NCBI GenBank assembly: GCA_963767005.1
Contig: CAVYCN010000018.1
Span: forward strand, 68,341-132,340
Length of the DNA: 64,000 nucleotides
Source: an uncultured Actinomycetes bacterium
GTDB taxonomy: Bacteria > Actinomycetota > Thermoleophilia > UBA2241
Direction: 5' to 3'
The translations under genes and the position numbers were made by a program. Each line of letters opens with the position of its first letter. Positions within the stretch are counted from its first letter, which is position 1. The notes under the pieces are model-generated. The model was given only the letters and a program-made list of their open reading frames with translations. It did no database searches and was not told the DNA's origin. Positions 17,993 to 43,000 of this stretch are shown piece by piece.

Positions 17993-19464
17993 GCGTTTGC
18001 TCCGGCGCGGTGCAGCTCCCTGTCGCTGGCCTCGATCGCGGCGTACTCGCTCGCCGGGTCGAAGTTGCGGGTCAGCAGGAAGTAGGCGGCGGCGGTGACG
18101 ACCACGCCGACCATCCAGGCGATGTCGACGCTGTTCAGGTAGTGACCGGCGATCGGCCCCGTGAAGTAGCTCTTCAGACTGACCAGGTTGAGCAGCACCA
18201 TGAAGGGGACCTCGGCCGCGAAGCCGATCGCATAGGCCAGCATGCCGCGCGGCGACCAGACACCGTAGATGCCGTGCGGCTTGAAGATGTCGACGATCGA
18301 GTAATGGCCGCGACGCACGAAGAAGAAGTCGATCAGGTTGGTCGTGGTCCACGGCACGAGCAGGTAGAGCATGAGGGTCAGGGCGGTGTCGACGACGCCC
18401 ACGGCGCTCGTCGAGATCGCCTTCGCGATCACGAACCAGATCACCGTCAGCACGAGGATCGTGACGATCCGCGCGCGCTTGGTGGGTGTCACCTTGCGGA
18501 ACGAGTCGACGCCGGCCAGCGTGGTGAGCATGCCGCCGTAGGCGTTCATGCCCATCGTCGCGGCGAGCGCGCTGGCCGACACGAACGCGGTGAGGCCGCC
18601 GAGGTGGCCGATCACATGGTTGCCGGCACTCTGCAGGCCGACGAGGCCGTCGGTCGCGCCCAGACGGACGGCGAGCCAGGCGCCCAGGGCGATCAGCCAG
18701 ACCGATGGGATCGCCGCGCCGCTGAACACCCAGGCGATGGTCGAGCCCTTGGCGGTGCGGCGCGGCAGGTAGCGCGAGTAGTCGGACACATAGCCGGCGT
18801 AGGTCAGGTTGTAGGCGGCCGCCGCCGAGAGCTGCGCCATAAAGCCGGTCCAGTTGAAGCCGTAGGCCGTGTGGCTGGCGACGTGGCCGGCGTGACCGGT
18901 GAGGATGCCGATCGAGATGATGCCGACGAGCGGCAGCGAGATGTAGAGCAGCCAGCGGAACATGCGGTGCAGCCAGTCGTAGCCGTAGATGGCCAGCAGC
19001 GCGGCGCCGGCCGTCGCAACGACGGCGATGACGTTCGCGTTCCAGCCGAAGGTGCCGTGCAGACCCTGAGCGAGCAGCACCTGGTCGGCCACGTTGAAGG
19101 CCATGTACGTGAAGAGCATGGCAAAGAGCGGCACGACCACGCCGCGAAAGCCGAACTGGGCGCGCGACTGGATCATCTGCGGCAGCCCGAGCACCGGCCC
19201 CTGGGTCGCGTGGAAGGCCATGAAGACCGTGCCGGCGACGATGCCGAGCAGGCCGGCCAGGATGGTCCAGTACAGCGACAGGCCGAAGGCCGGACCGATG
19301 AAGCCGATGGGGATCGTGAAGTACTGGAAGTTCCCCAGGAACCACAGCGGCCCCTGATGCCACACCTTGCCGTGTCGCTCGGAGTCGGGGATCCAGTCGA
19401 TGGAGCGCACCTCGATCCCGCTGATGCCGCTCGGGGTGCGCGTCGGTGACTCAACCGTGGCCAT
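17989..19464 (-). CDS. NCS1-family nucleobase/hydantoin:cation symporter
   Basis: 12-TMS profile typical of cytosine/purine/allantoin permeases. GAGGAGAG Shine-Dalgarno before ATG 19464. Confidence 0.85.
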   Translation of the reverse strand: MATVESPTRTPSGISGIEVRSIDWIPDSERHGKVWHQGPLWFLGNFQYFTIPIGFIGPAFGLSLYWTILAGLLGIVAGTVFMAFHATQGPVLGLPQMIQSRAQFGFRGVVVPLFAMLFTYMAFNVADQVLLAQGLHGTFGWNANVIAVVATAGAALLAIYGYDWLHRMFRWLLYISLPLVGIISIGILTGHAGHVASHTAYGFNWTGFMAQLSAAAAYNLTYAGYVSDYSRYLPRRTAKGSTIAWVFSGAAIPSVWLIALGAWLAVRLGATDGLVGLQSAGNHVIGHLGGLTAFVSASALAATMGMNAYGGMLTTLAGVDSFRKVTPTKRARIVTILVLTVIWFVIAKAISTSAVGVVDTALTLMLYLLVPWTTTNLIDFFFVRRGHYSIVDIFKPHGIYGVWSPRGMLAYAIGFAAEVPFMVLLNLVSLKSYFTGPIAGHYLNSVDIAWMVGVVVTAAAYFLLTRNFDPASEYAAIEASDRELHRAGANA

Positions 19465-19587
19465 GGCAAGCTCTCCTCTCGCCTGACGTCGTTGGGGCTG
19501 GCCGGTGGGCTGCTGCTGATCGTGCACGATCCACGGCGACCGCCACAGGCGTCGCCGGACAGAGGGACAAAAGCAGGCGCGGACGGC

Positions 19588-20487
19588 TCACGACCGTCCC
19601 GCCTGACGGGGCGCGCCGGCGCGGGCGGCGGCCGGCATGCCGGCCGCCGCCCGCGCCGGCGCGCTCACCGCGGCGTAGAGCTCGGGGCGCCGGTCGCGCA
19701 GCTGCGAGCCGTAGCCCGCGCGCGCCTGCCGGGTGTGTTCCAGGTCGACGGCGCCGGCGAGCAGAGCGTCCTCGCCGTCGTCGAGCGCGGCGACCTGGTG
19801 CCCGAAGCAATCGACGATGCGCGAGTGGCCCGAGAACGACGCCGGCCCGTCGGGTCCGGTGCGGTTGACCGCGACGTGCGGCACGACGTTGTCGTAGGCG
19901 CGGGCCGCGACCGCGAGCTCCCAGTCGGCGACGTAGGGGTCCTCCCAGGCGCCGATCGTGACGAGCAGCTCGGCGCCGGCCAGCGCGTGCGTGCGGGCGA
20001 CCTCGGGAAAGGCCGCGTCCCAGCAGATCATGAGACCGAGCTCGCCGAGCGATGTGGCGACGATCGGCAGCTCGTCGCCGTCGGCGAAGTGGCGGAGCTC
20101 GGTCTTGAGGCAGTGCGTCTTGCGGTACGAGACCACGGGGCGGCCGTTGCGCTCGAAGACGGCGGCCGCGTCGTAGATCAGGCCGGGCGCGCCGCCCGCC
20201 TCGGCGTAGCCCGCGATCAGCACCACGTCGAGCTCGGCGGCGAGGGCGGCAAGGGCCCGCAGGCTGGCGCCGTCGGGCCAGGGTTCGGCCAGCGCGGCGA
20301 ACCGCTCGCCGGCCGAGTAGCCGGTGACGGCGAGCTCGGGCGCGACCAGCAGCGCGAGCTCGGGTTGCGCCGCCTTGAGCTCGCGCCCGAGCGCGGCCAT
20401 ACGGGCCACGTTGGCCGCAGGGTCGCCGGTCGTAGGCCGCAGCTGGATGCCGCCGGCGACGATCACGGACGCACGCGGGCGGGCCAT
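19588..20487 (-). CDS. carbon-nitrogen hydrolase (nitrilase superfamily; N-carbamoyl amidase-like)
   Basis: 'YRKTHC' (Lys) and 'ICWD' (Cys) catalytic motifs. Confidence 0.8.
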   Translation of the reverse strand: MARPRASVIVAGGIQLRPTTGDPAANVARMAALGRELKAAQPELALLVAPELAVTGYSAGERFAALAEPWPDGASLRALAALAAELDVVLIAGYAEAGGAPGLIYDAAAVFERNGRPVVSYRKTHCLKTELRHFADGDELPIVATSLGELGLMICWDAAFPEVARTHALAGAELLVTIGAWEDPYVADWELAVAARAYDNVVPHVAVNRTGPDGPASFSGHSRIVDCFGHQVAALDDGEDALLAGAVDLEHTRQARAGYGSQLRDRRPELYAAVSAPARAAAGMPAAARAGAPRQAGRS

Positions 20488-20497
20488 CGGGCTCCTC

Positions 20498-21355
20498 TCA
20501 GACGTCCCGCAGGAGCGGGAACGTCATGCAGTGCGGTCCGCCGCCGCCCTTCAAGATCTCGCTGATCTCGGGGGCGATGACCTCGAGGCCGAGGGCGCGC
20601 AGCTTCGCGTTGACGTCGCGATTGCCGGCGAAGGTCAGCACGCGGCCGTCGCCGAGCGCCTGGATGTTGCAGTGGTGGGCGAGCACGCCGGCGCTGCTCA
20701 CCTCGATCAGCTCGAAGCGGCGCTTGGCCAGGGCGCGCAGGAAGAACTCGGGCATCTGCTCGACGGCGCACACAGCGACGCCCGGCGCCACGATGTTGAA
20801 GGCCATGTCGAGGTGCAGGTTGCGCGAGGGAAGCTGCACGCCGCGCACGGTGTAGCCGAGCGGCTCGAGGATCTCCTGGGCGTTGCGCAGCCCCTCCCAG
20901 TCGGTGCGCGCCACCACGCCGTGGGCCACCGTGGCCTCGTCTATGAGCCAGAAATCGCCGCCCTCCAAGGAGCCGCGGCAGACCTTGCCGATGATGGGCA
21001 CGCCGAGCTCTCGCAGCCTGGCCTCGTAGAGCAGCTCCTCGCCCTGGCGCACCGGCTCGCGGAAGCTGCCGATCAGCGCACCCTCGGCCAGACAGGCGCC
21101 GAAGTCGCGCGCGTAGACCATGTAGGGCAGCTCGGGATCGGGCTCAATGAGCTCGACCGCGACGCCGGCCTCGCGGTAGGCCGCCACGAGCTCTGAGTGC
21201 TCGCGGGAAAAGGCCGCAAGGTCGGGCTGCTCGCCGCGGGCCAGCACGCCGCGGGTGATCTCGTTGATGGGCTGGAAGCTGAAGTGGTCGGGGGGGCACA
21301 GCAGGACCTTGCGGAGCCTGCCCGTCGCGTTCGACACAAACAGCTGCTCGGTCAT
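20498..21355 (-). CDS. amidinotransferase-superfamily hydrolase (DDAH-like)
   Basis: About 285 aa, with a C-terminal 'GGGGPHCMT' catalytic Cys. GGAGAGGAG Shine-Dalgarno before ATG 21355. Confidence 0.75.
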   Translation of the reverse strand: MTEQLFVSNATGRLRKVLLCPPDHFSFQPINEITRGVLARGEQPDLAAFSREHSELVAAYREAGVAVELIEPDPELPYMVYARDFGACLAEGALIGSFREPVRQGEELLYEARLRELGVPIIGKVCRGSLEGGDFWLIDEATVAHGVVARTDWEGLRNAQEILEPLGYTVRGVQLPSRNLHLDMAFNIVAPGVAVCAVEQMPEFFLRALAKRRFELIEVSSAGVLAHHCNIQALGDGRVLTFAGNRDVNAKLRALGLEVIAPEISEILKGGGGPHCMTFPLLRDV

Positions 21356-21502
21356 CTGGGGCAACTCCTCTCCACCTGACGCTGTCGCGAGCGGAACGTA
21401 TCCGGCGCGGACGAGAGCGACAAGTGGACCTCTGCACCCGAAATGATGGATGGAAGGTGCCCTTGTACACCTGGTTTGATGCCGACGGCTGGCGGTGGTC
21501 GA

Positions 21503-22153
21503 ATGGGACCCGTGCAACGTCCCGTCATCATGTTCGACAACGACGGCGTGCTGGTCGATTCGTTCGACGCCTTCCTCGCGGCGTTCGGCGCGGCCTGCCG
21601 CCGCCACGGCCACCCCGAGGTCGGCACCCGCGAGCGGTTCCTGGGCCTGTTCGAGGGCAACTTCTACGACGCCATGGCGGCGCGCGGCGTAGCCGGCGAC
21701 GCGCTGCGCGCGATCGTCGCCGACACGACGGCCGCGCTCGACGCCTCACCGGAGCTGCAGCATCCCTTCCCCGGCGTGCCGGAGCTGCTGGGCGGCCTCG
21801 CCGCCCGCTTCGACGTTGTGGTGATCACCTCGAACGCGGCCGCCGTGGTGCGCGACTTCCTGGAGCGCGAGGGGCTCGCCGGCCTCGTGACCGACGTGCT
21901 CGGCGTCGAGACCGATCCGAGCAAGGTGCGCAAGATCGCCACGGTCACCGCGCGCTACCCCGGCCAGGCGCCGTACTACTACGTGGGCGACACGAGCGGC
22001 GACATGATCGAAGGCGCCGCGGCCGGAGTGACCCCGCTCGGCGCCGGCTGGGGCTGGCACGGGCCGGCGGCGCTCGCGACGGCCGGCGCAGCCTACGTCG
22101 CGTCCACGCCGGCCGACCTGCTCGCGTTCGTGACGGACGGCGCCGGCTCGTAG
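21503..22153 (+). CDS. HAD-IA hydrolase (phosphoglycolate phosphatase-like)
   Basis: 'MFDNDGVLVDS' and 'GDTSGD'. Confidence 0.7.
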   Translation: MGPVQRPVIMFDNDGVLVDSFDAFLAAFGAACRRHGHPEVGTRERFLGLFEGNFYDAMAARGVAGDALRAIVADTTAALDASPELQHPFPGVPELLGGLAARFDVVVITSNAAAVVRDFLEREGLAGLVTDVLGVETDPSKVRKIATVTARYPGQAPYYYVGDTSGDMIEGAAAGVTPLGAGWGWHGPAALATAGAAYVASTPADLLAFVTDGAGS

Positions 22154-26966: not shown

Positions 26967-27938
26967 ATGACAGACCGAGTCGGGCAGATCCTCTCCTGGT
27001 ACCGCTCCGAGAATCCAGGGGTCCAGGCCAACCTCTACCGCCTGCTCATGAGCGGCCGCCTGGCGGGCACCGGCAAGCTCGTCATCCTGCCGGTCGACCA
27101 GGGCTTCGAGCACGGTCCGGCGCGCAGCTTCGCGCCCAACCCGGCGGGCTACGACCCGCGCTACCACTTCCAGCTCGCGATCGACGCCGGCTGCAACGCC
27201 TACGCGGCACCGCTCGGCTTCATCGAGGCCGGCGCGGCGGAGTTCGCCGGCCGTATACCGCTCATCCTCAAGGCCAACAACCACGACCTGCTCTACACGA
27301 ACGTCGAGGGGCCGCTGCCGGCGGTGACGGCGGGCGTCGAGGACGCCCTGCGCCTGGGCTGTGTCGCGATCGGCTTCACGATCTACCCGGGCTCGGCCGC
27401 CCGCACCGAGATGTACGAGGAGCTACGCGAGCTGGCCCTCGAAGCCAAGGCCGCCGGCCTGGTCGTCGTCGTCTGGTCGTACCCGCGCGGCGGCGAGCTC
27501 ACCAAGGAGGCCGAGACGGCGGTCGACGTGTCGGCCTACGCCGCGCAGATCGCCGCCCAGCTCGGCGCCCACGTCGTCAAGGTCAAGCCGCCGACCTACG
27601 GCCCCTGGGACGCCAAGTCGAAGGAGGCGCTCGAGAAGGCCGGAGTGCCGCTCGAGACGCTGACCGACCGGGCGCGCTTCGTCGTGCAGGGCGCCTTCGC
27701 CGGCCGTCGCATCGTGATCTTCTCGGGCGGCGAGGCCAAAGGCACCGCGGCCGTGCTGCAGGAGAACCGCGATCTGGCCGCGGCCGGCTCGTTCGGCACG
27801 ATCATGGGACGCAACTCGTTCCAGCGCCCCCACGACGAGGCCGTCAAGCTCCTCCAGGATGTCATGGAGATCCACCGCGTGGGCGCCGCGCCCGGCGCCG
27901 TGCGCGAGCCGGCGCGCGACGAGGTCACGTCAGCCTGA
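26967..27938 (+). CDS. fbaB: class I fructose-bisphosphate aldolase (FbaB/DhnA type)
   Basis: 'GRLAGTGKLVILPVDQGFEHGP' and 'AYAAPLG'. Confidence 0.85.
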   Translation: MTDRVGQILSWYRSENPGVQANLYRLLMSGRLAGTGKLVILPVDQGFEHGPARSFAPNPAGYDPRYHFQLAIDAGCNAYAAPLGFIEAGAAEFAGRIPLILKANNHDLLYTNVEGPLPAVTAGVEDALRLGCVAIGFTIYPGSAARTEMYEELRELALEAKAAGLVVVVWSYPRGGELTKEAETAVDVSAYAAQIAAQLGAHVVKVKPPTYGPWDAKSKEALEKAGVPLETLTDRARFVVQGAFAGRRIVIFSGGEAKGTAAVLQENRDLAAAGSFGTIMGRNSFQRPHDEAVKLLQDVMEIHRVGAAPGAVREPARDEVTSA

Positions 27939-27970
27939 GCGGCGGCGACGTCGCTTGCTGACCGCCGCGA

Positions 27971-29374
27971 CTAGCGAATGACCGGACGGCGACCGGCGAG
28001 CCCCGCCCGGAATCGCTCGACGGCCGGCAGGTGCAGGTCGAGCAGGTCGGCGATGTGCGCCTTGGCCTCGAGCGGGCTCGGGTCGTCGTAGTAGCTCGCC
28101 TCGGTCTCGAAGATGCGTCCGAGGCGCAGCTCACCGCGCAGCTCGTGCATGGCGGCGTTGTCGGACAGGTCGCGCGGCGCGACCCCGAGCCGGTCGGCCA
28201 CGTAGCGTTTGGCCTGCGTGATCCTCATGCCCTTCGCCATCTGCATCCGCGCCACCAGATCTCCGGCGGCGCGCAGTCCGTTCATGCCGGAGGCGCACGA
28301 GTGGGCGACGTCCATACCGAACGAGTCGCCCGTGCCCACCTACAAGCCGTCCAGGCGGAGCACGTCGACGCAGGCGCGCGACACCCGCGAGACGGCGTCG
28401 ACCGGCGCGAAGGCGGTCATCGGCACGCCGCCCACGCCCATGCCGACGTTCATGTGCACGGGTATCTCGGCGGCGGCCATGCAGGGCTTCACGAAGGTGA
28501 GGGCGCGAGCCACGTTCCAGGGCGTCGACCTGCTCGTGTTGGTGTTCACCGCCGGTCCGAACACCGTCGCGCCGGCCTGCTGCACCACCGCGAGCTGACC
28601 CGCTGGCTTGAGCCCCGCCAGGCGCGTGCCGCGATACTCGAGCCGGCCGTGGGTGCCGAGCACGATCTCGGCCGCCATGCCGACCATGATGCCCAGGTCG
28701 GGGTGCCGCTCCCGCAAGATCTCGACGGTGCGCAGGGTGGCCAGCAGGTCGGCGTCGCCGGCGGCGCCGGCGGTGTCGAAGTTCACACCGTCGGCGCCGG
28801 CGTCCCACATGGCCTCGGCCACGTAGACCATGTCGGCCACGGCAAGCTCGACCGCCTCTTCCTGGGCGGCGCGCGCCTCGTCGATGCGCACCTCGGGCAG
28901 GAGCTGCGCCCAGTTGCCGCAGGGTCCGTCGGGTTCCGAGTACCGGCCCAGGTCGGGCTGGGCGCCGTAGTGCACCGGCACCGTCAGCCGCTCCTGGGCC
29001 TCCTTCATGTACTGCTGCTCGAAGGGGACAACGGGCTTGACCGCCTTGTAGGAGTAGTCGATGTGGAACAGCTCGACGCTGTCGTGGGCGAGCACCTGCT
29101 CGTAGGCGTACAGGGCGTCGACCCTGCTGCCGAGCTGCGGCGTGCCGGTGCCATCCTTTGAGAGCACGACCTCGTCGCCCACATCGACCGCCGTGAAGCG
29201 CGCCTGCGACGCGAAGATGTCGAGCAGATGGTCGAGCTCACTGTCGTCGAGCGACGCCAGCTTGCCGCGGGTGGCGGCGGCCTGCGTGCCCGCGTCGAGC
29301 TCGACGCGGATGGCGCTCCGGGTCGCCTCGACGAGCGACCCGTCGCCCATCCGCATCGGGACCTGCCGTTCCAT
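27971..29374 (-). CDS. mtbB: dimethylamine:corrinoid methyltransferase-like protein (MtbB-like), copy 1, with an in-frame TAG at 28340-28342
   Basis: ORFs 28340-29383 and 27971-28339 are in the same frame, separated only by TAG. It has the 'RMGDG', 'HIDYSYK', '[11 protein letters not shown]', 'MGVGGVP' and '...LRLDGL-TAG-VGTGD...GDLVARMQ' blocks. GGAGGTG Shine-Dalgarno before ATG 29374. Confidence 0.75.
28340..28342 (-). other. in-frame amber codon (candidate pyrrolysine) in mtbB-like copy 1
   Basis: Plus strand reads 'cta'. The reading frame continues on both sides. Confidence 0.7.
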
Positions 29375-29462
29375 CAACGTCACCTCCGCGGCGCCGTCGC
29401 CCCCCTGGCGTCGGTCCCGGGGATGCTATCGCAGTCGCAGGCAAAGCGGCAACGCGCCTTCA

Positions 29463-29519
29463 GGCAAGAAGCGAGGCGGGGGCGGCGCCTTCGGCGCCGC
29501 CCCCGCCTCGCTTCTTGCC
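29463..29519 (-). terminator. 27-bp perfect-stem GC hairpin downstream of mtbB copy 2 (no U-tract)
   Basis: 'ggcaagaagcgaggcgggggcggcgcc ttc ggcgccgcccccgcctcgcttcttgcc'. Confidence 0.45.
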
Positions 29520-29550
29520 GTCGCCGGTCTGACCGCCGCGCCGCGGCCTT

Positions 29551-30936
29551 TTACAACCCGACGCGCTGCTTGAAGCGCTCGACGCTGTTGATCGTGATGT
29601 CGAGCGCCTTGGCGATGTTGAACTTGGCCTCGATCATGCCGGCGTCGCCGGGACGCACCGCGGAGGTGTGAGGCAGGCACCCCAGCCCCTTCTCGATGCG
29701 GATCTGCTCCATGGCGATCGGGTCGGACAGGTCGCGTACGCCGCAGCCGAGCTTGTCGGCGACGTAGGCCTTGGCTTCACTCAGGCGCATCCTTCGGGTC
29801 ATCTGCATGCGTGCCACGAGATCTCCCGCGGTCCGCATTCCGCCCATGCCCGAAGCCTGCGAATGGGCAGACTCCATGCCCATGGCATCGCCCGTGCCCA
29901 CCTAGTAGCCGTCGATCTTGAGGATCTCGACGAAGGCCTTGGAGGCACGCGACGTGGCATCGGCCGGCGGATAGACGCAGGTCGGCACGCCGCCCACACC
30001 CATGCCCACGTTGACGTGCACCGGGATCTCGGCGATCTCGGCGGCCGGCTTGATGAAGGTCATCGCCCGGGCGATGTTCCAGGCGGTCGACTTGCCTGTG
30101 TTGATGTTGACGGCGGGGCCGTAGATCGAGGCGCCCGCGGCCTGCACCATGCGCACCTGGTCCTTGGGCCACATGCCGGCCAGACGCTCGCCGTCGAACT
30201 CGAGCTGGCCGTGCATGCCGAGCACGAACTCGCTCGCCATGCCGATCTCGATGCCGAGCCACGGGTATCTGTCGCGTAGCATGCGGCAAGCGGTGAGGCC
30301 GGCGAGAAAGTCGGCGTCGCCGGCCGCGCCGGTCGTGTCCATGTCGATGCCGTCGGCGCCGGCTTCGATCATGTGGTCGGCGACGAAGTTGATGTCGTTG
30401 ACCAGCATGTCGCAGGCCTCGAGCTGCGCGGCGCGGGCCTCGTCGACCTTCATGAGCGGCAGCAGCTCGGACCAGTTGTCGATCGGCCCGTCGGGCTTCG
30501 AGTAGCGGCCGAGGTCGGGCATCGCCCCGTACTGCACCGGGTTCGTGCAGAGCATCTGGGCGATCTTCATCGACTGGCCCTCGTGGGCCACGTTGGTCTT
30601 GACCGCCTTGTACGAGTAGTCGATCTGCCAGAGCTCGATCATGTCGATGCCGACGACCTGCTCGTAGGTCTGCAGGTCCTGCACCCGGTTACCGATGTGC
30701 TTGGTGCCGGTGCCGTCGTTGCTCATGACGACCTCGTCGCCGATGTCGACGGCGGTGAAGCGGGCCGACGAGGCATAGATGTCGAGCAGGTGGTCGAGCT
30801 CGTCCTGATTGAGCGGGTCGACCTTGGCCCGTTTGGCGGCCTGTTGCGTGCCGTCCTCGAGGTCGGCCTTGATCTCGGAGCGCGTCATATCGACGAGCGC
30901 GCCGTCTCCCATGCGCGTTGCGATCTTGGGTTCCAA
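29551..30936 (-). CDS. mtbB: MtbB-like dimethylamine methyltransferase, copy 2, with an in-frame TAG at 29902-29904
   Basis: Same architecture as copy 1: '...ILKIDGY-TAG-VGTGDAMGMES...GDLVARMQ'. TTG start 6 nt after a GGAGGTG Shine-Dalgarno gives 'MEPKIATRMGDG'. TAA stop. Confidence 0.75.
29902..29904 (-). other. in-frame amber codon (candidate pyrrolysine) in mtbB-like copy 2
   Basis: Plus strand 'cta'. ORFs 29902-30951 and 29551-29901 share a frame. Confidence 0.7.
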
Positions 30937-31232
30937 GCGCATCACCTCCACGTGCGCACGTTCGCGGGGACCGGCCGCCGGTAGCGACCGGGACCGGATC
31001 GGACTCGGATGTGCCCCGGGTCTGGGTCACGAAGGGCCACACCGGGAGCCGTCGGCCCATGGTATATCGGCCCTCCCACCGTCCGCCACCCGGGGCACCC
31101 AGGGGCCCGAGCGCGGCACGCCGAGACCGGGACGCTCGCTCTCACCCCGAGTCGCGCCGCATCACCCCCCCTCGCGGCGGTACGACCAGGGGCGCGGCAT
31201 CACCCCACGGCGCGCCGGCGTCTCGCGCATGC

Positions 31233-31634
31233 TCAAAGCCCCTCGAGATCGAACCGTTCGTCGATGGCGAGGCAGTGGCCGACCCCCAGCCGCCGTGCGA
31301 CCAGGAAGGTCGCGCAGTCCACGAGCGACGGCTGCCGTTCGGCGCCTGCCGTGTTCAGCTCACCGATCAGTCGCTCGACGGCGAGCTCGTGCTCGACGGG
31401 TCGGACCCACTCGACATCGAACGCCGGGAGAAGATCGCGCAGGAACGTCGTCACCGCTGCCACGCCCAGACGGCGTCTGAGCACATCGACGGTCTCGAGC
31501 GCGACGTAGTTGGTGACGATGAGCCGGTCGGCCGCATCGAGCTCGTAGGCGAACATGTGCCGCGTCAGCTCGTGCTCAGGATGGCGACCGTCCAGGAGCG
31601 CGACGAGCGCCGTCGTGTCGATCAGAGTCGCCAC
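31233..31634 (-). CDS. vapC: PIN-domain toxin (VapC)
   Basis: 'VATLIDTTALVALLD...IVTNYVALETV...VDCATFLVARRLG'. GTG start 1 nt after the vapB TGA. Confidence 0.75.
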   Translation of the reverse strand: MATLIDTTALVALLDGRHPEHELTRHMFAYELDAADRLIVTNYVALETVDVLRRRLGVAAVTTFLRDLLPAFDVEWVRPVEHELAVERLIGELNTAGAERQPSLVDCATFLVARRLGVGHCLAIDERFDLEGL

Positions 31635-31635
31635 G

Positions 31636-32088
31636 TCACTCGTCGTCGCGCGGGTTGTCGAGCCAGTACCGAGGCGCTCTCCGCTCGCCGGGATCACTGC
31701 CGCGCTGCGCATTGTTCCCAGGCGCCGGACCGGCCGCCGTGTCGAACCCGGCACCGGCCGCCATGTCGAACCCTGCACCGGCCGCCATGTCGAACGCTGG
31801 GTCGGGTGCGGGGCCGGGCGTCGTGCCCGGACCAGGCTCGACGTCATCGACGACGGCCAGCGCGCGCCGCCGGACGAGACGGACGAGCGACTCAGACCGC
31901 GCTACCTGGATGTCGAGAGCGTGCCGCACGTAGCCCGCCAGGGAGAGACCATCGAGCCTCGCCCGTTCCCGGACGGCGTCGAACTGCTCTTCATAGAGCT
32001 GCACGGTCACGCGGATCAAAGGCTGACCTCGCAGGTCGCGGAGAGACCGCGGTGCCGTGCCGATGCGCGAGGCCAGCCCGTCGCGCAC
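31636..32088 (-). CDS. vapB: ribbon-helix-helix antitoxin (VapB/CopG-like) with a repeat-containing C-terminus
   Basis: 'IRVTVQLYEEQFDAVRERARLDGLSLAGYVRHAL'. The C-terminus carries 'AFDMAAGAGFDMAAGAGFDTAAG'. Confidence 0.65.
   Translation of the reverse strand: MRDGLASRIGTAPRSLRDLRGQPLIRVTVQLYEEQFDAVRERARLDGLSLAGYVRHALDIQVARSESLVRLVRRRALAVVDDVEPGPGTTPGPAPDPAFDMAAGAGFDMAAGAGFDTAAGPAPGNNAQRGSDPGERRAPRYWLDNPRDDE
31729..31800. repeat. 24-bp x 3 tandem repeat inside vapB
   Basis: Three tandem copies of 'ccggccgccrtgtcgaacccbgca'. Confidence 0.7.
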
Positions 32089-32111
32089 GGGAGGTACGGG
32101 AGTGTGGGTGT

Positions 32112-32160
32112 GTGTGGTGCCATCATGCCATCACTTTCTGCTGGCATGATGGCACCACAC
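32112..32160. repeat. perfect 19-bp inverted repeat with an 11-nt loop in a locally AT-richer spot
   Basis: 'gtgtggtgccatcatgcca tcactttctgc tggcatgatggcaccacac'. Confidence 0.7.
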
Positions 32161-32267
32161 ACCCTCGGGGTCCCGCGGCTCGAGTGGGCCACGGGCTCAC
32201 ATTTGACGCGGGAACGAGGTCACGGAGCGCAGCTGGAGCGGTTGACGAAGGAGTGGGTGCGGTCACG

Positions 32268-32411
32268 GCGACGCGATCCTCGGGCGACGCGATCCTCGGG
32301 CGGCGCGGTTCTCGGGCGGCGCGGTCCTCGGGCGGCGCGGTCGTCAGGCGGCGCGGTCCTCGGGCGGCGCGGTCGTCAGGCGGCGCGGTCGTCAGGCGGC
32401 GCGGCGGGCGG
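32268..32411. repeat. 16-bp x 9 tandem minisatellite (gcgrcgcggtcctcgg variants)
   Basis: Head-to-tail units with no spacers. It overlaps the last codons of the 2-hydroxyacid dehydrogenase gene. Confidence 0.75.
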
Positions 32412-33417
32412 TCGCGTCGGCGGCGTCGGGCGCTATGCGGATCTCGTTGACGAGTGGGCGACCGGCCTCGAAGTCGGCGGCGTTCGCGAGCGTCGTCGTC
32501 GCGATCTGCTCGAGCGCCTCGCTCGTGAAGTAACCCTGGTGCGCCGTGATCACCACGTTGGGGAACGTGAGCAGGCGACTGAAGACGTCGTCCTGGATGA
32601 TCTGACCCGACAGGTCGCGCGAGAAGAGCTCCGTCTCCTCTTCGTAGACGTCGAGACCGAGCGCGCCGATGTGGCCCGACTTCAGCCCCGCGATCACGGC
32701 GCGCGAGTCGACGAGGCCGCCGCGGCTCGTGTTGACGAGCATGACGCCGCGCTTCATCAGCGCGATGGCGTCGCGGTCGATCAGGTGGGTGGTCTCCGGC
32801 AGCAGCGGGCAGTGCAGCGTGACGATGTCAGAGGCGGCGAGCAGCTCGGCCAGCGACACGTAGGTGACGCCCATCTCGCGGGCGCGCTCGCTCGGGAACG
32901 GGTCGTAGCCCAGCAGGACGCAGCCGAAGCCGCGCAGGATGCCGGCCGTCGTGGCACCGATGATGCCCGTGCCGACGATGCCGACGGTGCGACCGTTGAG
33001 GTCGAAGCCCAGCAGGCCGTCGAGCGAGAAGTTGCCGTCGCGGACGCGCTGGTAGGCGCGATGGATCTTGCGGTTCAGCGCGAGGATGAGCGTGACGGTG
33101 TGCTCCGCTACGGCGTGCGGCGAGTAGGCCGGCACGCGCACGACGCGCAGGCCCAGGGCGGACGCGGCCGCGAGGTCGACGTTGTTGAAGCCCGCCGAAC
33201 GCAGGGCGACGAGCGTCGTTCCGCCCGCGGCGAGCGTCGCGAGCGTCTCGCCGCCGAGCTCGTCGTTGACGAAGACGGACACGCCGGGGAACCCGGCCGC
33301 AAGCGGAGCCGTGTCGGCGGTGAGCCGCGCCTCGAAGAACACGAGCTCATGAGCGAAGCTCGCGTTGGCCGCGGTCAGGAACTCACGGTCGTACCGCCTG
33401 GCGGAGAAGACTGCGAT
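32392..33417 (-). CDS. D-isomer-specific 2-hydroxyacid dehydrogenase (D-lactate dehydrogenase-like)
   Basis: Aligns along its whole length with LdhA: '[15 protein letters not shown]...[15 protein letters not shown]...GIVGTGIIG...NTSRGGLVD...HQGYFT'. No canonical start codon at the aligned N-terminus; the nearest is ATC 33417, with a GTG 45 codons upstream. Confidence 0.65.
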
Positions 33418-33548
33418 GCGCGTGGCGTCCTCGCTGGAGTCGGGCTTGCGTCCGACCCCACGGTTCCCCGCCAGGAGCAGGACAAACGCAATCGTCGCGG
33501 CGAGGCGCGATCGTCGCGACGAGGCGCGCCGCGATAGGGCGATGAGGT

Positions 33549-33590
33549 CGGCGGTGGGCGGGCGCCCATACGGGCGCCCGCCCACCGCCG
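33549..33590 (-). terminator. 19-bp perfect-stem GC hairpin immediately downstream of mtbB copy 3
   Basis: 'cggcggtgggcgggcgccc atac gggcgcccgcccaccgccg'. No U-tract. Confidence 0.45.
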
Positions 33591-33593
33591 CGA

Positions 33594-35000
33594 TCAGCGT
33601 CCGACGGGGTGCTTGCGGCCGGCCATCTCGCGGAAGCGCTCCACGCAGTTGACCGGCACGTCGAGCACGGCCGCGATGTTGAACTTGGCCTCGATCCCCA
33701 TGGGGTCGCCGACGTCGGTGATCTCGCCCGACTCGAGGATGCCGCCGAGGCCGTGCTCCTTGCGCACGTCGAGCATGACCGTCGGGTCGGAGAGGTCGAT
33801 CGTCGAGACGCCCAGCCGGTCGGCCACGTACCGCTTGGCCTCGACGAGCCGCATCCCTCGGGTGATCTGCATCCGGGCCACCAGATCTCCAGCAGTCCGG
33901 ATCCCGCCCATCCCCGAGGCGACGCCGTGGCTCACAGCCTGGCCGTACACGTCGCCCGCGCCCACCTACAAGCCATCCAGGCGCAGGATGTCGACCGCGG
34001 CGCGCGAGGCCCGGCAGGTGGCGTCGCCGGCCGGGGTGACGTGCATCGGCACGCCGCCCACCCCCATGCCGCCGTTCAGGTGCACCGGCACGGTCGCCTC
34101 GTCGCAGCACGGCTTGGCGATGGTCAGCGTGCGCGCCACGTTCCAGGCGATCGACCTGCCGGTGTTCACGTTGATCGCCGGGCCGAAGATGGTGACGCCG
34201 GCCTTGGCGGCCACCTTCATCTGCTCGCGCGGCCACAGGCCGGCGAGGCGCACGCCGTCGTACTCGAGCTCGCCGTGCATGCCGAGCACGAACTCGCCGG
34301 CCATGCCGATCTGGATGCCCACCGTCGGGTGCGCGGCGCGGATGCGCTCGACCGCCTTGAGCGTGGCGAGGAAGTCGGCGTCGCCGGCCGCGCCGGCCGT
34401 GTCGAGGTCGATGAACTCGGCGCCGGCTTCGATCAGCTCGTCGGCCACGAAGCAGATGTCGTCGACCGCGAGCTCGACCGCCTGTTCCTGGGCCGCGCGA
34501 GCTTCGTCGATGCGACCGAGCGGCAGAAGCTGCGACCAGTTCGGCACCGGACCGTCGGGCACGGTGTAGAGGCCGAGGTCGGGCATGGCGCCGTAGCCGA
34601 GCGGCGCCGTGGTCACGAACTGCGCCTGGCGCATCATGACCTGCTCGAAGGCCGTGACCCCCTTCGCCGGCTTGTAGGAGTAGTCGTGGTGGTAGAGCTC
34701 GAGCGAGTCGGCGCAGAGGTACTGCTCGTAGTACTGCAGGTCGTTGATGCGCGTGCCGAGGTCCTGGCTGCCGCAGCCGTCGAAGGACAGCACGACCTCG
34801 TCGCCGATGTCGACGCCGGTGAACCGGCTGTTCGAGCAGAAGATGTCGGCGAGGTGGGCGAGCTCGTCGGCGCCCAGCTCGGGACTCTTGCTGCGCTTGG
34901 CGCCGGCCTGCGTGCCGGCCTCGAGGTCGGCGCGGATCTGCGACGGCGTCATCTCGACGAGCGCGCCGTCGCCCATGCGCGTGCGGATCGTGGGTTCCAT
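33594..35000 (-). CDS. mtbB: MtbB-like dimethylamine methyltransferase, copy 3, with an in-frame TAG at 33966-33968
   Basis: '[12 protein letters not shown]' after a GAGGTGA Shine-Dalgarno. '...[21 protein letters not shown]...GDLVARMQ'. TGA stop. Confidence 0.75.
33966..33968 (-). other. in-frame amber codon (candidate pyrrolysine) in mtbB-like copy 3
   Basis: Plus strand 'cta'. ORFs 33966-35000 and 33594-33965 share a frame. Confidence 0.7.
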
Positions 35001-35430
35001 CGCTCACCTCATGGTCGGATGCGCCGTGAAGCCGAAAAGACCGAGAACTGAGCCGGGCAAGCCTCCTGCGTGAGCCCGGCGAGTCGAGCCTACTCCCCGG
35101 TCGCCGGACCTGCTACGGAAGGCGCGAAGAACGCACAAGTTCGCGAGCCGGGCCCGTCACCACCGTCGACGGGACGGCAGCCGGTCGCCGCGGAGCGGTG
35201 ACCCGGCGGTCCAAGCTCCGTCCACCCCCAGGCCGCGACGGACCGGCGCCGTCTCTACTAAGCAGATAAGAGTTGCCTGAGCGTAGAAGTGATGCAACAA
35301 TCCGACGTGATTTTCCGAGCCCCGCTGCTACGGCCTTCATGGGTGGTCGCCTGCGGGGTGACCACGCCCGGCGCACGCTGTACCTGGGGAGCGCCGGACG
35401 GTCTGTGAAACGGAGCAAGGGGAGGTCTGC

Positions 35431-36939
35431 ATGCCTGAAATCCAAATGGCGACCGAGAAAGCCAAACTCACCAAGACCCTACGTCGGTGGGACATGGCGC
35501 TGTTCACCGCCTGCGCCATCATCGGGTTCGACTCGCTCGCCTACACCACCTCGGTCGGGCTGGGCCAGGCCATCACCTGGCTGATCATCACCTTCTTCAT
35601 CTTCCTCATCCCGTTCGGCCTGCTCACCGCCGAGGTCAGCACCGCCTTCCCGGCCGAGGGTGGCGTCTACGCCTGGTGCCGCATGGCGTTCGGCAAGCTC
35701 TTCGGCGAGCTCGCCACCATGATGTACTGGCTGTCGAACGCGATCTGGCTGGGCGGCACGCTGACCGCCGTCACGATCGGTGTCATCGATGTCTTCTTCA
35801 CGCCCAAACACCTGCTCGGCACCGCCGCGTCGATCGTCGTCGGCCTCGTTTTCACCTGGGTGACCATCTTCTTGTCGGTGATCAACCTCAAGTACGGCAA
35901 GTGGACGGGCAACCTGGGCACCTTCTTCAAGGCCATCATCATGGTGGTGATGGCGGTACTCGGCATCCTCTTCCTGGTTCGCCACGGCATCCCCAAGGGG
36001 ATCGCCCCGGCGAGCTCGTACACGCCCAGCATCACAGGCTTCCTCGCCGTCATCGGCGTCATCGTCTTCCTGTGGGTCGGCTTCGAGCTCCAGGGCTCGG
36101 CCAGCGAGGAGATGGTCAATCCGCAGAAGGACGTGCCGCGCTCGATTCTCAGCTCCGGCGCCATCACGACCGCCATGTACGTCGTTGTCATGCTCTGCAT
36201 GCTCCTCGTGCTGAAGGAGAAGGACCTCACCGCAGCGTCCGGCATCCCCGCCGCGGTGCAGGCCGTCATGGCCGACGCGGTGGGTAGCGGCACGGCCAAG
36301 GCGATCGGCTATTTCCTCGGCGTCATCTTCATCCTGCAGTACCTGAGCTCGGCGTCGGTGTGGACCCTGGGTTCGGCCCGCGTGCAGGCAGTGGCCTCGC
36401 TCGACGGCTCGGCCCCGCGCATGCTCGGCAAGTTCTCCAAGCAGGGCACCCCGCTCGCGATGTGCGTCCTCATGGGCATCGTCGGCTCGATCATGTGCTT
36501 CATCGTGTTCCTCGTGACGAGCGGCAGCCTGCACAGCTTCATCGTCGTGATGATCGCCCTCGACACCTCGCTCACGGTGGTCGTCTACGTCTTCCTGATC
36601 CCGGCGATGGTGCGTCTGCGCACCACGCACGCGCACGTCCATCGGCCGTTCATCGTGCCGGGCGGCGCGGTCGGCCTGTGGGCCTGCGCGGCCATCACTT
36701 GGATCCTCTCCGTCATCACCTGCATCACCCTGCTGTGGCCGGGCCTCATCAACAACATGCTCGGCCAGAGCTTCTCGATCACGGACTACGAGGGCATGTC
36801 CCGGCTGCGGTTCGAGCTCATGGACCTCGGCACGTTCGTCGTCCTCATGATCATTGGCGTGGGCTTCTGGGCCTACGGTCGTACACAGGGCACGGTCTCC
36901 GAAGACGCCGTCATCGAGGGCGTCGTCGAGGAGTCCTGA
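35431..36939 (+). CDS. APC-superfamily amino acid/amine permease
   Basis: 12-TMS profile. AAGGGGAGG Shine-Dalgarno before the ATG. It is preceded by a 180-nt leader of lower GC. Confidence 0.8.
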   Translation: MPEIQMATEKAKLTKTLRRWDMALFTACAIIGFDSLAYTTSVGLGQAITWLIITFFIFLIPFGLLTAEVSTAFPAEGGVYAWCRMAFGKLFGELATMMYWLSNAIWLGGTLTAVTIGVIDVFFTPKHLLGTAASIVVGLVFTWVTIFLSVINLKYGKWTGNLGTFFKAIIMVVMAVLGILFLVRHGIPKGIAPASSYTPSITGFLAVIGVIVFLWVGFELQGSASEEMVNPQKDVPRSILSSGAITTAMYVVVMLCMLLVLKEKDLTAASGIPAAVQAVMADAVGSGTAKAIGYFLGVIFILQYLSSASVWTLGSARVQAVASLDGSAPRMLGKFSKQGTPLAMCVLMGIVGSIMCFIVFLVTSGSLHSFIVVMIALDTSLTVVVYVFLIPAMVRLRTTHAHVHRPFIVPGGAVGLWACAAITWILSVITCITLLWPGLINNMLGQSFSITDYEGMSRLRFELMDLGTFVVLMIIGVGFWAYGRTQGTVSEDAVIEGVVEES

Positions 36940-36989
36940 CGATCCTCACCTGCGATCCCACCGTCTGAGGTCGATCGCCTCTGACGGCC

Positions 36990-37041
36990 GGGACCGGGGC
37001 GGGGCGAGCCTTGCGGCTCGCCCCGCCCCGGTCCCTTTTTC
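36990..37041 (+). terminator. intrinsic terminator after the APC permease
   Basis: 'ggaccggggcggggcgagcc ttgc ggctcgccccgccccggtcc' followed by CTTTTT. Confidence 0.8.
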
Positions 37042-39279: not shown

Positions 39280-41445
39280 CTACGCGGCCTGCGTCTGCGA
39301 GCGGGCGGCGTCGGCCAGCGTGCCGAGCAAGCCGCCGACCGACTCGCGCACCGCCTCGCTGCGTCCTCCGTCACGCACGCAGCTCCACACCAGATGAGTG
39401 TCGCCTGCCCCGTCGCCGCGCGCCGGTCCCATGACGTCGCGGATCTGGCGCTGCGCCTCGCGCAGATGGCCTTCGTCGCACGACGCGCCCATCACCGCGA
39501 GCGGCTTGCCGGCGAGGGCCTCGCGACCGTCCTGCGAGTCCGCCGCCCAGGCGAAGGCGTTGCGCAGCGCCGCGCGCACGTCGCCCTCGTACTGCGGCGT
39601 CGCCACGAGCACGGCGCCCGCCCGGCGCAGCGCGGCGCGCAGATGCTCGACCTGCACCGGCTCGGCCGTCTCGGTGGCCGCGCCGTCGCCTGGGTAGTCG
39701 GGTAGCGAGGCGACGTCGAACTCGTCGATCGTCATGCCCTCGGGCGCCTGACGCTGGGCCGCGCGGAACAGGCTGCGATGGTACGAGCGCCGGCCGCCGG
39801 CGGACGCGCTGGCCGCGACCAGGCCGAGCACCTGCACGGGGCGCGACTGCACGGCGACGGGCGCCGCGGCCCGCGCGGGACCGGCGGCGGCGGCCGGCAC
39901 GGCCGCCGCCGCCTCGGCCGCCACCTTCGCCTTCGACTCGATGAGGGCGGCCGCGAGCGCGGCCGCCCCGGCGAGCACGCCGGCCAGCACCCAGAAGCCC
40001 ACCCGGAAGCCGTGCGTGGCGGCCGCGACCGGAGCCAGCGCGCCCAGGCCGGCGTGAGTCCGCAGGTAGCTCGTCGTCGCGGTCGTGGCGACCGTCGTGA
40101 TCACCGCGAGACCCACCGCGCCGCCGATCTGCTGGCTCGTGTTGATCAGGCCCGACGCCGCGCCCGCCTCGTCGCCGCGAGCGCCGGTCAGCGACGAGAT
40201 CGTGTCGGGTACGAAGGCCAGACCCAGGCCGGCGCCCGTGAGCAGGAACCCGGGCAGCAGGTCGGCGACGTAGCTGCCGTGCACCGGCAGGCGCGTGTAG
40301 AGCAGCACGGCGACGGCGGCCAGGGCGAGCCCGACGGGCAGCACCACGCGCGAGCCGAACCGGTTGACGAGCGACTGGGCTACCACCGCCGAGACCACGA
40401 CGAGGAACGTGGTCGCGATGTAGGCCACGCCCGTCTTGAGGGCCGAGTAGCCCAGGATCTGCTGCATGTACAGGGACAGCAGGAAGAACTGCGAGAACAG
40501 GCCCGCCCCGATCAGAAAGCCGACTACGTTCGCCGCCCGGGGCGTGCGCAGGCCGAGGATGCGGAGCGGCAGCACGGCGTTGCGCGAGCGCACCTCGATG
40601 ACGACGAAGGCGGTGAGCAGACCGGCGGCGGCGATCAGCAGACCGATCGTCTCGGCCGCGCCCCAGCCGACCTGCGTCGCCCGGGTGAGGGCGTAGACGA
40701 GGACCATGAGGCCGCCGGTCACGGTCACGGCGCCGGGCAGGTCGAAGCTGCGCCGGGCGCCCTCGAGACGGCTCGCCGGCAGCAGGAACGGGCACAGCGC
40801 GATCAGCGCCGCGCCGATCGGCACGTTGATGTAGAAGATCCACTGCCAGCCCAGGCCGCTCGTCAGCACGCCGCCCAGCAGGGTGCCGGCCGCCGCCCCG
40901 CTGCCGGCGATGCCGCCCCAGATACCGAGCGCCAGGTTGCGCTCGCGGCCCTCGGCGAACGTCGCGACCAGGATCGACAGGGCCGCCGGCGACAGCAGCG
41001 CGCCGCCCAGCCCCTGGATGCAGCGGAAGGTGATGAGCGACGCCTCGGACCACGACAGCCCGCAGGCGAGCGAGGCGCCGGCGAACAGAATGAGCCCGAT
41101 CATGAACAGGCGCCGGCGGCCCAGCACATCGGCGAGGCGGCCGCCCAGCAGCAGGAACCCGCCGAAGAAGATGGCGTAGGCCGACAGCACCCACTGCAGG
41201 CTCTCGACCGAGAAGTGCAGGTCGCTGCGGATCGAGGGCAGCGCGACGTTCACCACCGCGACGTCGAGCACGACCATGAACTGGGCCACGCAGATCGCGG
41301 CGAGGATGTACCACTTGCGGCGATCCCAGGCCGAGCGGCCCGGGCTCGGCGCGTCTGCGCCGCGCTCGCCGCCCGGGCCCGAGCGGCCCGCGCCCGGTCC
41401 GGCTGCGCCGAAGGCGGGTGACGGAGATGTCTGAGGGTCGGCCAT
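39280..41445 (-). CDS. MFS transporter (DHA2/EmrB-like, 14 TMS) fused in-frame to a C-terminal NADPH-dependent FMN-reductase-like domain
   Basis: AGGGAGAGG Shine-Dalgarno before ATG 41445. About 510 aa of MFS, then an Ala/Pro linker, then '...VLVATPQYEGDVRAALRNAFAWA...GKPLAVMGAS'. There is no stop codon between the two parts. Confidence 0.7.
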   Translation of the reverse strand: MADPQTSPSPAFGAAGPGAGRSGPGGERGADAPSPGRSAWDRRKWYILAAICVAQFMVVLDVAVVNVALPSIRSDLHFSVESLQWVLSAYAIFFGGFLLLGGRLADVLGRRRLFMIGLILFAGASLACGLSWSEASLITFRCIQGLGGALLSPAALSILVATFAEGRERNLALGIWGGIAGSGAAAGTLLGGVLTSGLGWQWIFYINVPIGAALIALCPFLLPASRLEGARRSFDLPGAVTVTGGLMVLVYALTRATQVGWGAAETIGLLIAAAGLLTAFVVIEVRSRNAVLPLRILGLRTPRAANVVGFLIGAGLFSQFFLLSLYMQQILGYSALKTGVAYIATTFLVVVSAVVAQSLVNRFGSRVVLPVGLALAAVAVLLYTRLPVHGSYVADLLPGFLLTGAGLGLAFVPDTISSLTGARGDEAGAASGLINTSQQIGGAVGLAVITTVATTATTSYLRTHAGLGALAPVAAATHGFRVGFWVLAGVLAGAAALAAALIESKAKVAAEAAAAVPAAAAGPARAAAPVAVQSRPVQVLGLVAASASAGGRRSYHRSLFRAAQRQAPEGMTIDEFDVASLPDYPGDGAATETAEPVQVEHLRAALRRAGAVLVATPQYEGDVRAALRNAFAWAADSQDGREALAGKPLAVMGASCDEGHLREAQRQIRDVMGPARGDGAGDTHLVWSCVRDGGRSEAVRESVGGLLGTLADAARSQTQAA

Positions 41446-41768
41446 CGTCCTCTCCCTGGCCTCGTGGCTCGGCGGCGCACCGTTCCGGCGACGCGCCGCC
41501 CCGCGGTCTTGCCTGTCGACTTCGGCGGCGCGGACCGGTGGTCTTCTGGACGTCACGACCACGCGGCAGGGCCCGCCCCGGCCAATCGTTTCGCCGTGCT
41601 TTCCCCGACTTTTGAGCGCCCAACCCATCAGATCGCCACGGGTGAGCAACGGCTCCGAGGACTAAGGCGACCACACGCCGGGGTATCCCGAGGCCGACGC
41701 GGCGCCGGGGTCGCAGGCCGGCCGCCGCCGTCCCGAGGGATGCAGGCTCGAACGAGAGGGACAGCTGC

Positions 41769-42924: not shown

Positions 42925-43000
42925 TGGAGCCGGCGGGGGGAATCGAACCCTCGACCTGCTGTTTACAAGACAGCTGCTCTGCCAACTGAGCTACGCCGGC
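42925..43000 (-). tRNA. tRNA-Thr (anticodon TGT)
   Basis: The reverse complement folds as a cloverleaf: acceptor GCCGGCG/CGCCGGC, D-arm GCTC-AGTTGGC-AGAGC, anticodon arm GCTGT-CTTGTAA-ACAGC, T-arm GAGGG-TTCGATT-CCCCC (one A.C mismatch), then CCA. Confidence 0.8.

Follow-up and report, generated by a model that had tools for sequence, protein, structure and literature searches.

The stretch of DNA analysed here (64 kb, hereafter the window) comes from contig CAVYCN010000018.1 of an uncultured soil Actinomycetes bacterium of the class Thermoleophilia, and carries three genes of the dimethylamine:corrinoid methyltransferase (MtbB) family, each interrupted by an in-frame TAG at the position where pyrrolysine (Pyl) would be inserted. 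Textbooks describe Pyl-dependent methylamine methyltransferases from methanogens and from a small number of anaerobic Firmicutes and Deltaproteobacteria, and the locus raises the question of how three such genes could function in this bacterium with none of their usual partner genes beside them. An earlier note on this DNA described the triplet as an orphan set embedded in an accessory-looking mosaic, suggestive of amplification or horizontal acquisition. We arrived at a different reading, which we consider likely: this is a native, vertically inherited Thermoleophilia locus with three anciently duplicated, Pyl-dependent mtbB genes, whose Pyl machinery and mtbC lie at a separate locus.

GC content is ~70% across the window, gene calls are clear from a GC content at third codon positions (GC3) above 0.9, and core genes of actinobacterial type (sigA, ligA, surE, clpB and hspR-dnaJ-grpE-dnaK) are present. 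To score the three mtbB genes, we used full-length translations with X placed at the Pyl site, against an equivalog cutoff of 369.1 bits for TIGR02368.

29374..27971, minus strand: mtbB1, Pyl-encoding dimethylamine:corrinoid methyltransferase (PF09505, E = 1e-161; TIGR02368, 424 bits)
28340-28342, minus strand: in-frame TAG of mtbB1, whose terminal stop is likewise TAG
~30942..29551, minus strand: mtbB2, Pyl-encoding MtbB paralogue (TIGR02368, 422 bits)
29902-29904, minus strand: in-frame TAG of mtbB2
35000..33594, minus strand: mtbB3, Pyl-encoding MtbB paralogue (TIGR02368, 400 bits)
33966-33968, minus strand: in-frame TAG of mtbB3

PF09505 matched all three genes (E = 1e-161; 539 bits), and the motif DG[L/Y]-TAG-VG[T/A]GD surrounds the in-frame stop in each of them. 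The mutual identity of MtbB1, MtbB2 and MtbB3 is only 58-60%, and no relative of MtbB was found in the PDB by sequence. Homologues of MtbB1 number more than 2,300, and almost every one among the top 120 is exactly 344 amino acids (aa) long, a size which indicates that these proteins have been cut at the same TAG; one of the homologues listed carries the record name 'Thermoleophilia bacterium'. Judged by profile and motif, the window genes are bona fide members of the MtbB family, with catalysis on dimethylamine as the predicted activity.

We then asked which partner genes the locus offers. When all GC3-supported open reading frames (ORFs) of the window were scanned with Pfam, none encoded a corrinoid protein of the MtbC type, URO-D/MtbA, a pterin-binding methyltransferase, RamA, PylS, PylB, PylC or PylD, and a six-frame tblastn search of the window with PylSc, PylSn, PylB, PylC, PylD, MtbC and the radical SAM protein of the Thermoleophilia pyl cassette returned nothing at E ≤ 1e-3. 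The tRNA search, run with ARAGORN, found no tRNA-Pyl in the window and reported only a tRNA-Thr (42925-43000, 6 kb beyond the block of genes around the triplet). The sole B12-binding domain of the window belongs to a class-B radical SAM protein (5889-7385, minus strand) and is not of the MtbC type; this gene and that of a PA0069-like radical SAM protein (751-1767, plus strand) lie near sigA. Corrinoid, methyltransferase-2, activase and pyl genes are absent from ~27 kb on each side of the block, as they are from ±10 kb around the corresponding loci of five relatives (labelled L002, L005, L007, L008 and L009, which we compared together with further metagenome contigs, also given L numbers). The earlier note had reported no corrinoid protein, MtbA, RamA or pyl gene in a narrower neighbourhood, and their absence holds for the whole 64 kb by Pfam, ARAGORN and tblastn. 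The usual operon arrangement, mtbC beside mtbB, is not seen in the window; in the class, mtbC adjoins pylS.

This separate location emerged from a scan of GTDB species-representative genomes for pylS, using the pocket motif PMLAPNLY in high-GC codons. The scan returned 95 loci, 94 of them genuine pylS by tblastn; the PylS query was the catalytic domain of M. mazei PylRS, checked against the PDB (612 bits to 2q7e). At least 45 of the carriers, among 80 titles listed, are 'uncultured Thermoleophilia', 'Actinomycetes' or 'Actinomycetota' metagenome-assembled genomes (MAGs) of ~70% GC, and most of these pylS MAGs stem from MFD, the same project as the window. One Thermoleophilia PylS has ~4,000 close homologues in soil metagenomes, and automatic naming at NCBI has already labelled some entries 'pyrrolysine--tRNA(Pyl) ligase large subunit [Thermoleophilia bacterium]'. 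The proteins of the cassette scored above their NCBIfam cutoffs throughout (bits, cutoff in parentheses): PylSc 317 (178), PylSn 125 (51), PylD 221 (150), PylC 344 (248), PylB 453 (348) and the 'methyltransferase cognate corrinoid protein' (pyl_corrinoid, MtbC-type) 224 (215). A tRNA-Pyl(CUA) is present in these Thermoleophilia cassettes. The gene order, TldD/PmbA, ArsR, OsmC, BacA, amidase, pylSc, mtbC, radical SAM, pylSn, Germane, pylT, pylD, pylC, pylB, is repeated in L105-L107, L174 and L175, and all the fuller pylS loci that were annotated hold the cassette of pylSc, mtbC, radical SAM, pylSn, pylT and pylDCB. Such cassettes share assemblies with the mtbB clusters of L007 (ERZ25039462, 783-kb contig) and L009 (ERZ25039527).

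Related contigs show several further layouts. A fourth MtbB type adjoins pylS and mtbC in L084, L118, L120 and L122; L130 reads ligA, mtbB, Pyl-type mttB, corrinoid gene and another mtbB; and L132 reads mtbB, mttB, corrinoid gene and APC-superfamily (amino acid-polyamine-organocation) permease. TAG-interrupted mttB genes were found in the related high-GC contigs at L118:2190-3722, L130:3394-4878 and L132:2007-3869, their N-terminal parts alone reaching 443-458 bits against TIGR02369, while L120:2355-3983 is an uninterrupted 542-aa gene of the MttB superfamily that scores 304 bits, under the cutoff, and is a non-Pyl homologue; all four adjoin corrinoid genes. Because of these layouts, the word 'orphan' is apt for the locus and fails for the class, where a separate cassette holds the corrinoid gene next to pylS.

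Two features of the cassette regions stand on their own. In the Thermoleophilia cassette, mtbC and pylSn flank a conserved radical SAM gene of ~290-350 aa (L047:7211-7999, L102:2057-2944, L046:4259-5389, L056:3907-4794, L105:11744-12640, L174:7882-8760 and L175:7859-8737); its product is weakly similar to the C-terminal regions of B12-radical SAM proteins, is not PylB and falls outside the canonical pyl set, and possible roles are corrinoid activation, Pyl chemistry or something unrelated. Genes for ThiS, a ferredoxin and an aldehyde:ferredoxin oxidoreductase, usually tied to anaerobic metabolism, lie 3' of the cassette at L105:18941-20861 and L106:18940-20861, and bear on an anaerobic use of Pyl enzymes by these Thermoleophilia.

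Taken together with the locus, the cassette suggests how the three genes might work. Pyl-tRNA(CUA) would read the in-frame UAG, which is followed by a PYLIS_2 stem-loop, to give a full-length enzyme of ~465 aa, the Pyl machinery and the cognate MtbC being supplied from a separate locus (pylSc, mtbC, radical SAM, pylSn, pylT, pylD, pylC, pylB). MtbB1, MtbB2 and MtbB3 would each take a methyl group off dimethylamine, or off related amines, and load it onto Co(I)-MtbC provided in trans, a further methyltransferase would hand it on, most likely to tetrahydrofolate, and the adjacent APC permease would probably bring in the substrate. We infer the presence of a pyl cassette in this very genome, and likewise the substrates, the role of the permease and the methyl acceptor.

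Possibly, the three Pyl paralogues no longer share a substrate and at least some act on amines other than dimethylamine, with the neighbouring permease, dehydrogenase and aldolase hinting at a more complex compound. Consistent with such a split, long evolution has preserved the paralogues as separate orthologue groups (~60% identity), the fourth MtbB type occurs in linkage with pylS and mtbC, canonical dimethylamine metabolism has no place for the conserved neighbours, and related contigs join these genes with the Pyl-type mttB and the non-Pyl MttB homologue described above. However, all three proteins exceed the MtbB equivalog cutoff, the residues around Pyl are conserved in all three, and the conservation of the neighbours may merely mirror chromosomal context near ligA. 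We therefore treat a division of substrates as conceivable but doubtful.

We next considered whether the in-frame TAG is read through at all. Scored with Rfam RF02509 (gathering score 36), a PYLIS_2 element ('pyrrolysine insertion sequence mtbB') begins exactly at the in-frame TAG of each gene.

28243..28342, minus strand: PYLIS_2 element of mtbB1 (RF02509, 73.3 bits against 36)
29805..29904, minus strand: PYLIS_2 element of mtbB2 (RF02509, 54.8 bits against 36)
33869..33968, minus strand: PYLIS_2 element of mtbB3 (RF02509, 50.6 bits against 36)

The hairpin spans +50 to +113 downstream of the UAG and is paired at 93% in 14 copies (window and relatives) and at 92.5% in 52 independent metagenome copies. 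Its covariation reached 0.30 in the 14 copies and 0.25 in the 52, compared with 0.10 after shuffling (0/500) and 0.02-0.10 in slid controls, and the compensatory changes are synonymous third positions. We had entertained this hairpin 3' of the UAG as a new element and rejected that idea; it is the known Rfam family, real but not novel.

The internal stop itself is equally constant: among non-redundant copies of the window and its relatives 14/14 have TAG, as do 69/70 further metagenome copies. The exception, an mtbB3-type copy on a metagenome contig (L153:3293), reads GAG (Glu), whether through an error of sequencing or as a natural Pyl-to-Glu variant. Downstream of the TAG the coding sequence is under purifying selection, with dN/dS of 0.11-0.38 on the 3' side compared with 0.06-0.28 on the 5' side. 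The codon that follows is GTG in the three copies of the window and often GTT, GTA, GTC, GCN, ATC or ATA in orthologues; a restart at this GTG was accordingly considered and rejected, since the non-start codons of the orthologues exclude it.

These measurements bear directly on the proposal that no readthrough occurs, the genes being either decaying pseudogenes or sources of a 344-aa N-terminal protein and a separately started C-terminal peptide of ~120 aa in a Pyl-less genome. Gene callers do divide each mtbB in two, the window's copies do have GTG after the TAG, pyl genes were not found in the window, and TAG serves as an ordinary terminator here. Yet TAG interrupts 83/84 copies, and neither TAA nor TGA, the commonest terminator of this genome, ever occurs there; many orthologues continue with a non-start codon; PYLIS_2 is kept with compensatory changes while dN/dS downstream stays below 0.4; and Pyl cassettes are widespread in the class. 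The constancy of the TAG, the non-start codons, the purifying selection and PYLIS_2 together make both the pseudogene and the two-polypeptide models quite improbable.

To place the triplet in its genomic setting, we compared the surrounding genes with those of relatives. All the features that the earlier note had listed are present: the mtbB triplet, an aldolase, a 2-hydroxyacid dehydrogenase, a vapBC-like pair, two repeat arrays, an inverted repeat and an APC permease. The genes flanking and separating the mtbB copies are:

26967-27938, plus strand: class I fructose-bisphosphate aldolase (DeoC/LacD family), convergent with mtbB1 (NF006704, 479 bits against 277)
31233-31634, minus strand: vapC-like PIN-domain toxin gene (PF01850, 22.0 bits, just under the cutoff of 23.6)
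31637-32019, minus strand: vapB-like antitoxin gene with a TTG start (from its translation and an orthologue in L002)
32392 to ~33470 (start approximate), minus strand: D-isomer-specific 2-hydroxyacid dehydrogenase, D-LDH/VanH-like (PF02826, 1.8e-54; PF00389, 3.4e-27)
35431-36939, plus strand: APC-superfamily permease, divergent from mtbB3 (PF13520, 1.7e-40)

In L002, a 1.02-Mb contig whose MtbBs are 91-98% identical to those of the window, the gene order is the same throughout: MFS/FMN-reductase, GNAT, permease, mtbB3, 2-hydroxyacid dehydrogenase, vapBC, mtbB2, mtbB1, aldolase and GGDEF/GAF/HD. The core beside ligA, consisting of two to three TAG-split mtbB genes, the dehydrogenase, the GGDEF/GAF/HD gene and the aldolase, persists at 82% (L005), 72% (L009) and 68% (L007, L008) identity, and metagenome contigs repeat these neighbourhoods, with L112 holding a compact mtbB3-mtbB2-mtbB1 tandem. 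Each copy has its own orthologue in relatives, at 91, 82, 72 and 68% identity for mtbB1, 96, 93, 87 and 78% for mtbB2 (L002, L005, L007, L009) and 98, 86 and 68% for mtbB3 (L002, L005, L009). Near-identical tandem copies, the mark of recent amplification, are not seen; with 58-60% identity among paralogues and one-to-one orthologues in relatives, the triplication is ancient and predates these lineages.

Composition gave the same picture. GC3 is 0.93-0.96 for mtbB1-3, the aldolase, the dehydrogenase and the permease, and synonymous-codon scores of -0.59 to -0.73 compare with -0.65 for dnaK, -0.55 for clpB and -0.65 for ligA, so that the codon usage of these genes is indistinguishable from that of the housekeeping genes; only vapC is mildly atypical. 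Both comparisons that the earlier note had suggested, synteny in relatives and GC3 with codon usage relative to dnaK, thus came out against its account of the block. An accessory mosaic, recently amplified or horizontally acquired and signalled by the toxin-antitoxin pair and repeats, could draw on the confinement of vapBC, the inverted repeat and the repeat arrays to the lineage of the window and L002 (other small genes take that position in L005, L007 and L009), on the slightly lower GC3 of vapC (0.83) and on the change of transporter beside the cluster (APC in some relatives, an ABC system in L009), but it is refuted by the conserved synteny of the whole block in L002 and of the core down to 68% identity and is further opposed by the divergence and one-to-one orthology of the paralogues, by housekeeping-like codon usage and by Pfam scans and a tRNA search that found no integrase, transposase or flanking tRNA at the block, leaving it highly improbable.

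Several observations nevertheless weigh against a native triplet served from a distant cassette. For this genome itself, of which the 64 kb cover part of a 240,844-bp contig (contig_6431 of assembly ERZ25039480), neither pyl genes nor a tRNA-Pyl or a corrinoid gene came to light. Four pylS look-ups matched assemblies ERZ25039527, ERZ25039462, ERZ25039459 and ERZ25039600, not ERZ25039480, the assembly of the window, and across the match lists of MtbB1, PylS and MtbB2 no pylS contig was paired with a contig carrying the mtbB1-3 cluster. A methylcorrinoid:tetrahydrofolate/coenzyme M methyltransferase and a RamA-type activase were not seen in any of the mtbB or pyl loci examined. The substrate specificity of the three paralogues, at 58-60% identity, is a prediction from sequence. 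Finally, TAG terminates ~10/41 window genes, including sigA (4243), grpE (~56057), the MFS/FMN-reductase gene (39280) and mtbB1 (27971). Among the window genes no backup stops lie close behind these TAG terminators, as might mark genome-wide recoding of UAG; reading past one would usually lead through tens to more than 100 codons before another in-frame stop. There is thus no global reassignment of UAG, unrestrained Pyl suppression would lengthen essential proteins, and since TAG ends ordinary genes, Pyl insertion must be limited or regulated. The obvious model for such confinement is that pyl expression is regulated, as it is in Acetohalobium.

Within the block, the neighbours of the triplet differ in how widely they are kept. 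Homologues of the aldolase, 75-77% identical, adjoin mtbB in L108, L109, L111, L136, L159 and L161. The dehydrogenase, whose NCBIfam matches all fall under their cutoffs, adjoins mtbB in L002, L005, L007, L141 and L145. The permease likewise lies divergently beside mtbB3 in L002, L005, L141, L145 and L167, and a homologue 47% identical to it stands directly 3' of the mtbB-mttB-corrinoid operon of L132; NCBIfam gave it sub-threshold matches only, to GadC- and TyrP-type antiporters. The earlier suggestion that the permease imports the amine substrate gains some support from this adjacency and from the L132 operon, and we regard the protein as a candidate importer. The window differs from the European Nucleotide Archive record of the same contig (L001) by one 19-bp tandem-repeat unit (~33487-33528, just 5' of the dehydrogenase gene), one base of a C homopolymer and three substitutions, with sites at ~33487-33528 and ~31164; this is assembly or population variation, and because of the repeat indel gene callers start the dehydrogenase differently (398 aa compared with 315 aa).

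Repeats and hairpins of the block are as follows.

29459..29525, no strand assigned: putative hairpin in the spacer that separates the stop codon of mtbB2 from the start of mtbB1 (Rfam matches of hairpin type to either strand, all sub-threshold)
31725-31795, no strand assigned: tandem repeat of 24 bp x 3.0 inside vapB, encoding an FDMAAGAG-type linker expansion
~32110-32130 and 32142-32162, no strand assigned: perfect inverted repeat with ~21-nt arms and an 11-nt spacer, ~90-140 nt upstream of vapB
32267-32404, no strand assigned: tandem array of 16 bp x 8.6 (TRF score 199, 91% matches)
33537..33602, no strand assigned: GC-rich hairpin directly 3' of the mtbB3 stop (repeat search; 31-nt arms, 84% complementary)
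36990..37035, plus strand: strong intrinsic terminator after the permease gene (20-bp stem and T tract)

The hairpin behind mtbB3 is a possible terminator, though it has no T tract. Scanning the block for sigma-70 promoters gave no match, which is no surprise at such GC content. The inverted repeat, given as 19 bp in the earlier note, has perfect arms that we measured at ~21 nt; its core GGTGCCATCATGCCA and the complement are kept at equal spacing upstream of vapB in L002 and are absent from L005, L007 and L009, all of which are without vapBC. It is probably the operator or promoter of the toxin-antitoxin module. The 16-bp unit GGCGGCGCGGTCCTCG forms an array running from the dehydrogenase stop codon through its 3' flank to ~100 nt before the vapBC palindrome, a region that aligns only loosely with L002.

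The pair resembles VapBC type II toxin-antitoxin modules in having a small upstream gene with a ribbon-helix-helix-like N-terminus, a PIN-domain gene 2 nt later and a perfect palindrome upstream, the usual site of the operator. It departs from them in a PIN match under the Pfam cutoff (PF01850 is on record for the L002 orthologue of vapC) and in an antitoxin with the 24-bp x 3 expansion; neither protein matches an NCBIfam family. Together with the inverted repeat and the arrays, vapBC looks like the only part of the block that behaves as a lineage-specific insertion, and it may represent a small toxin-antitoxin module inserted between the dehydrogenase gene and mtbB2 in this sublineage, presumably without a functional link to mtbB.

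Elsewhere in the window, a 789-aa ORF (39280-41649, minus strand) fuses a major facilitator superfamily (MFS) transporter (PF07690) to an NADPH-dependent FMN reductase (PF03358), an unusual architecture called likewise in L001 and L002. A run of genes for an ornithine/aspartate carbamoyltransferase, an NCS1 permease, a C-N hydrolase and a DDAH/arginine-deiminase-like enzyme (16397-21613, minus strand), just preceded by a PucR-type regulator (14529-16376), lies ~6 kb from the mtbB block and looks like a cluster for the utilisation of guanidino or ureido compounds.

How does this arrangement compare with known systems? With Methanosarcina mtbB1/2/3 and mtbC, the window shares the TIGR02368/PF09505 family, a Pyl UAG at the same conserved position, PYLIS_2 and the presence of several paralogues per genome, and a permease is associated with the cluster as in methanogens, whose mtb/mtt clusters also contain permease genes (mtbP/mttP; PMC5688252). 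The host, in contrast, is a ~70% GC bacterium, and its copies are only 58-60% identical with none adjoining mtbC; the corrinoid gene of Thermoleophilia lies in the pyl cassette elsewhere, the acceptor cannot be coenzyme M, and MtbA and RamA were not seen. Among bacteria, Desulfitobacterium hafniense, Acetohalobium arabaticum and Bilophila wadsworthia have split pylSn/pylSc, pylBCD and pylT beside genes of the mttB/mttC type. Thermoleophilia share with such systems the split PylSn/PylSc, pylT (CUA), pylB/C/D, a corrinoid gene beside pyl and the use of UAG as an ordinary stop elsewhere in the genome. They differ in gene order (pylSc, mtbC, radical SAM, pylSn, Germane-domain gene, pylT, pylDCB), in the extra radical SAM gene, in having the main methyltransferase genes mtbB1-3 unlinked from the cassette, and in phylum, Actinomycetota.

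The finding as first framed is largely explained and ordinary; of modest interest is the host range, which extends a known system. The one survey found, that of Guo et al. (2022), counts only two actinobacterial PylRS genomes (PMC9630628), and no description of Pyl or mtbB in Thermoleophilia was found in the searchable literature. Thermoleophilia are among the commonest soil actinobacteria, and homologues of MtbB and PylS in soil metagenomes number in the thousands. We tentatively propose, at a little under an even chance, that the class may be a large and essentially undescribed reservoir of Pyl decoding, in which the pyl cassette encodes a single corrinoid protein and three to four ancient MtbB paralogues, with a Pyl-type MttB as well in some lineages, lie dispersed at a distance from it. 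If true, this would amount to a trans-acting methylamine network around a shared corrinoid protein, possibly with distinct amine specificities and with Pyl insertion confined to a few mRNAs. If the genes are expressed, a major soil lineage would use di- and trimethylamine by a route not yet considered in soil carbon and nitrogen cycling, and would do so with a natural ambiguity of UAG in a high-GC genome.

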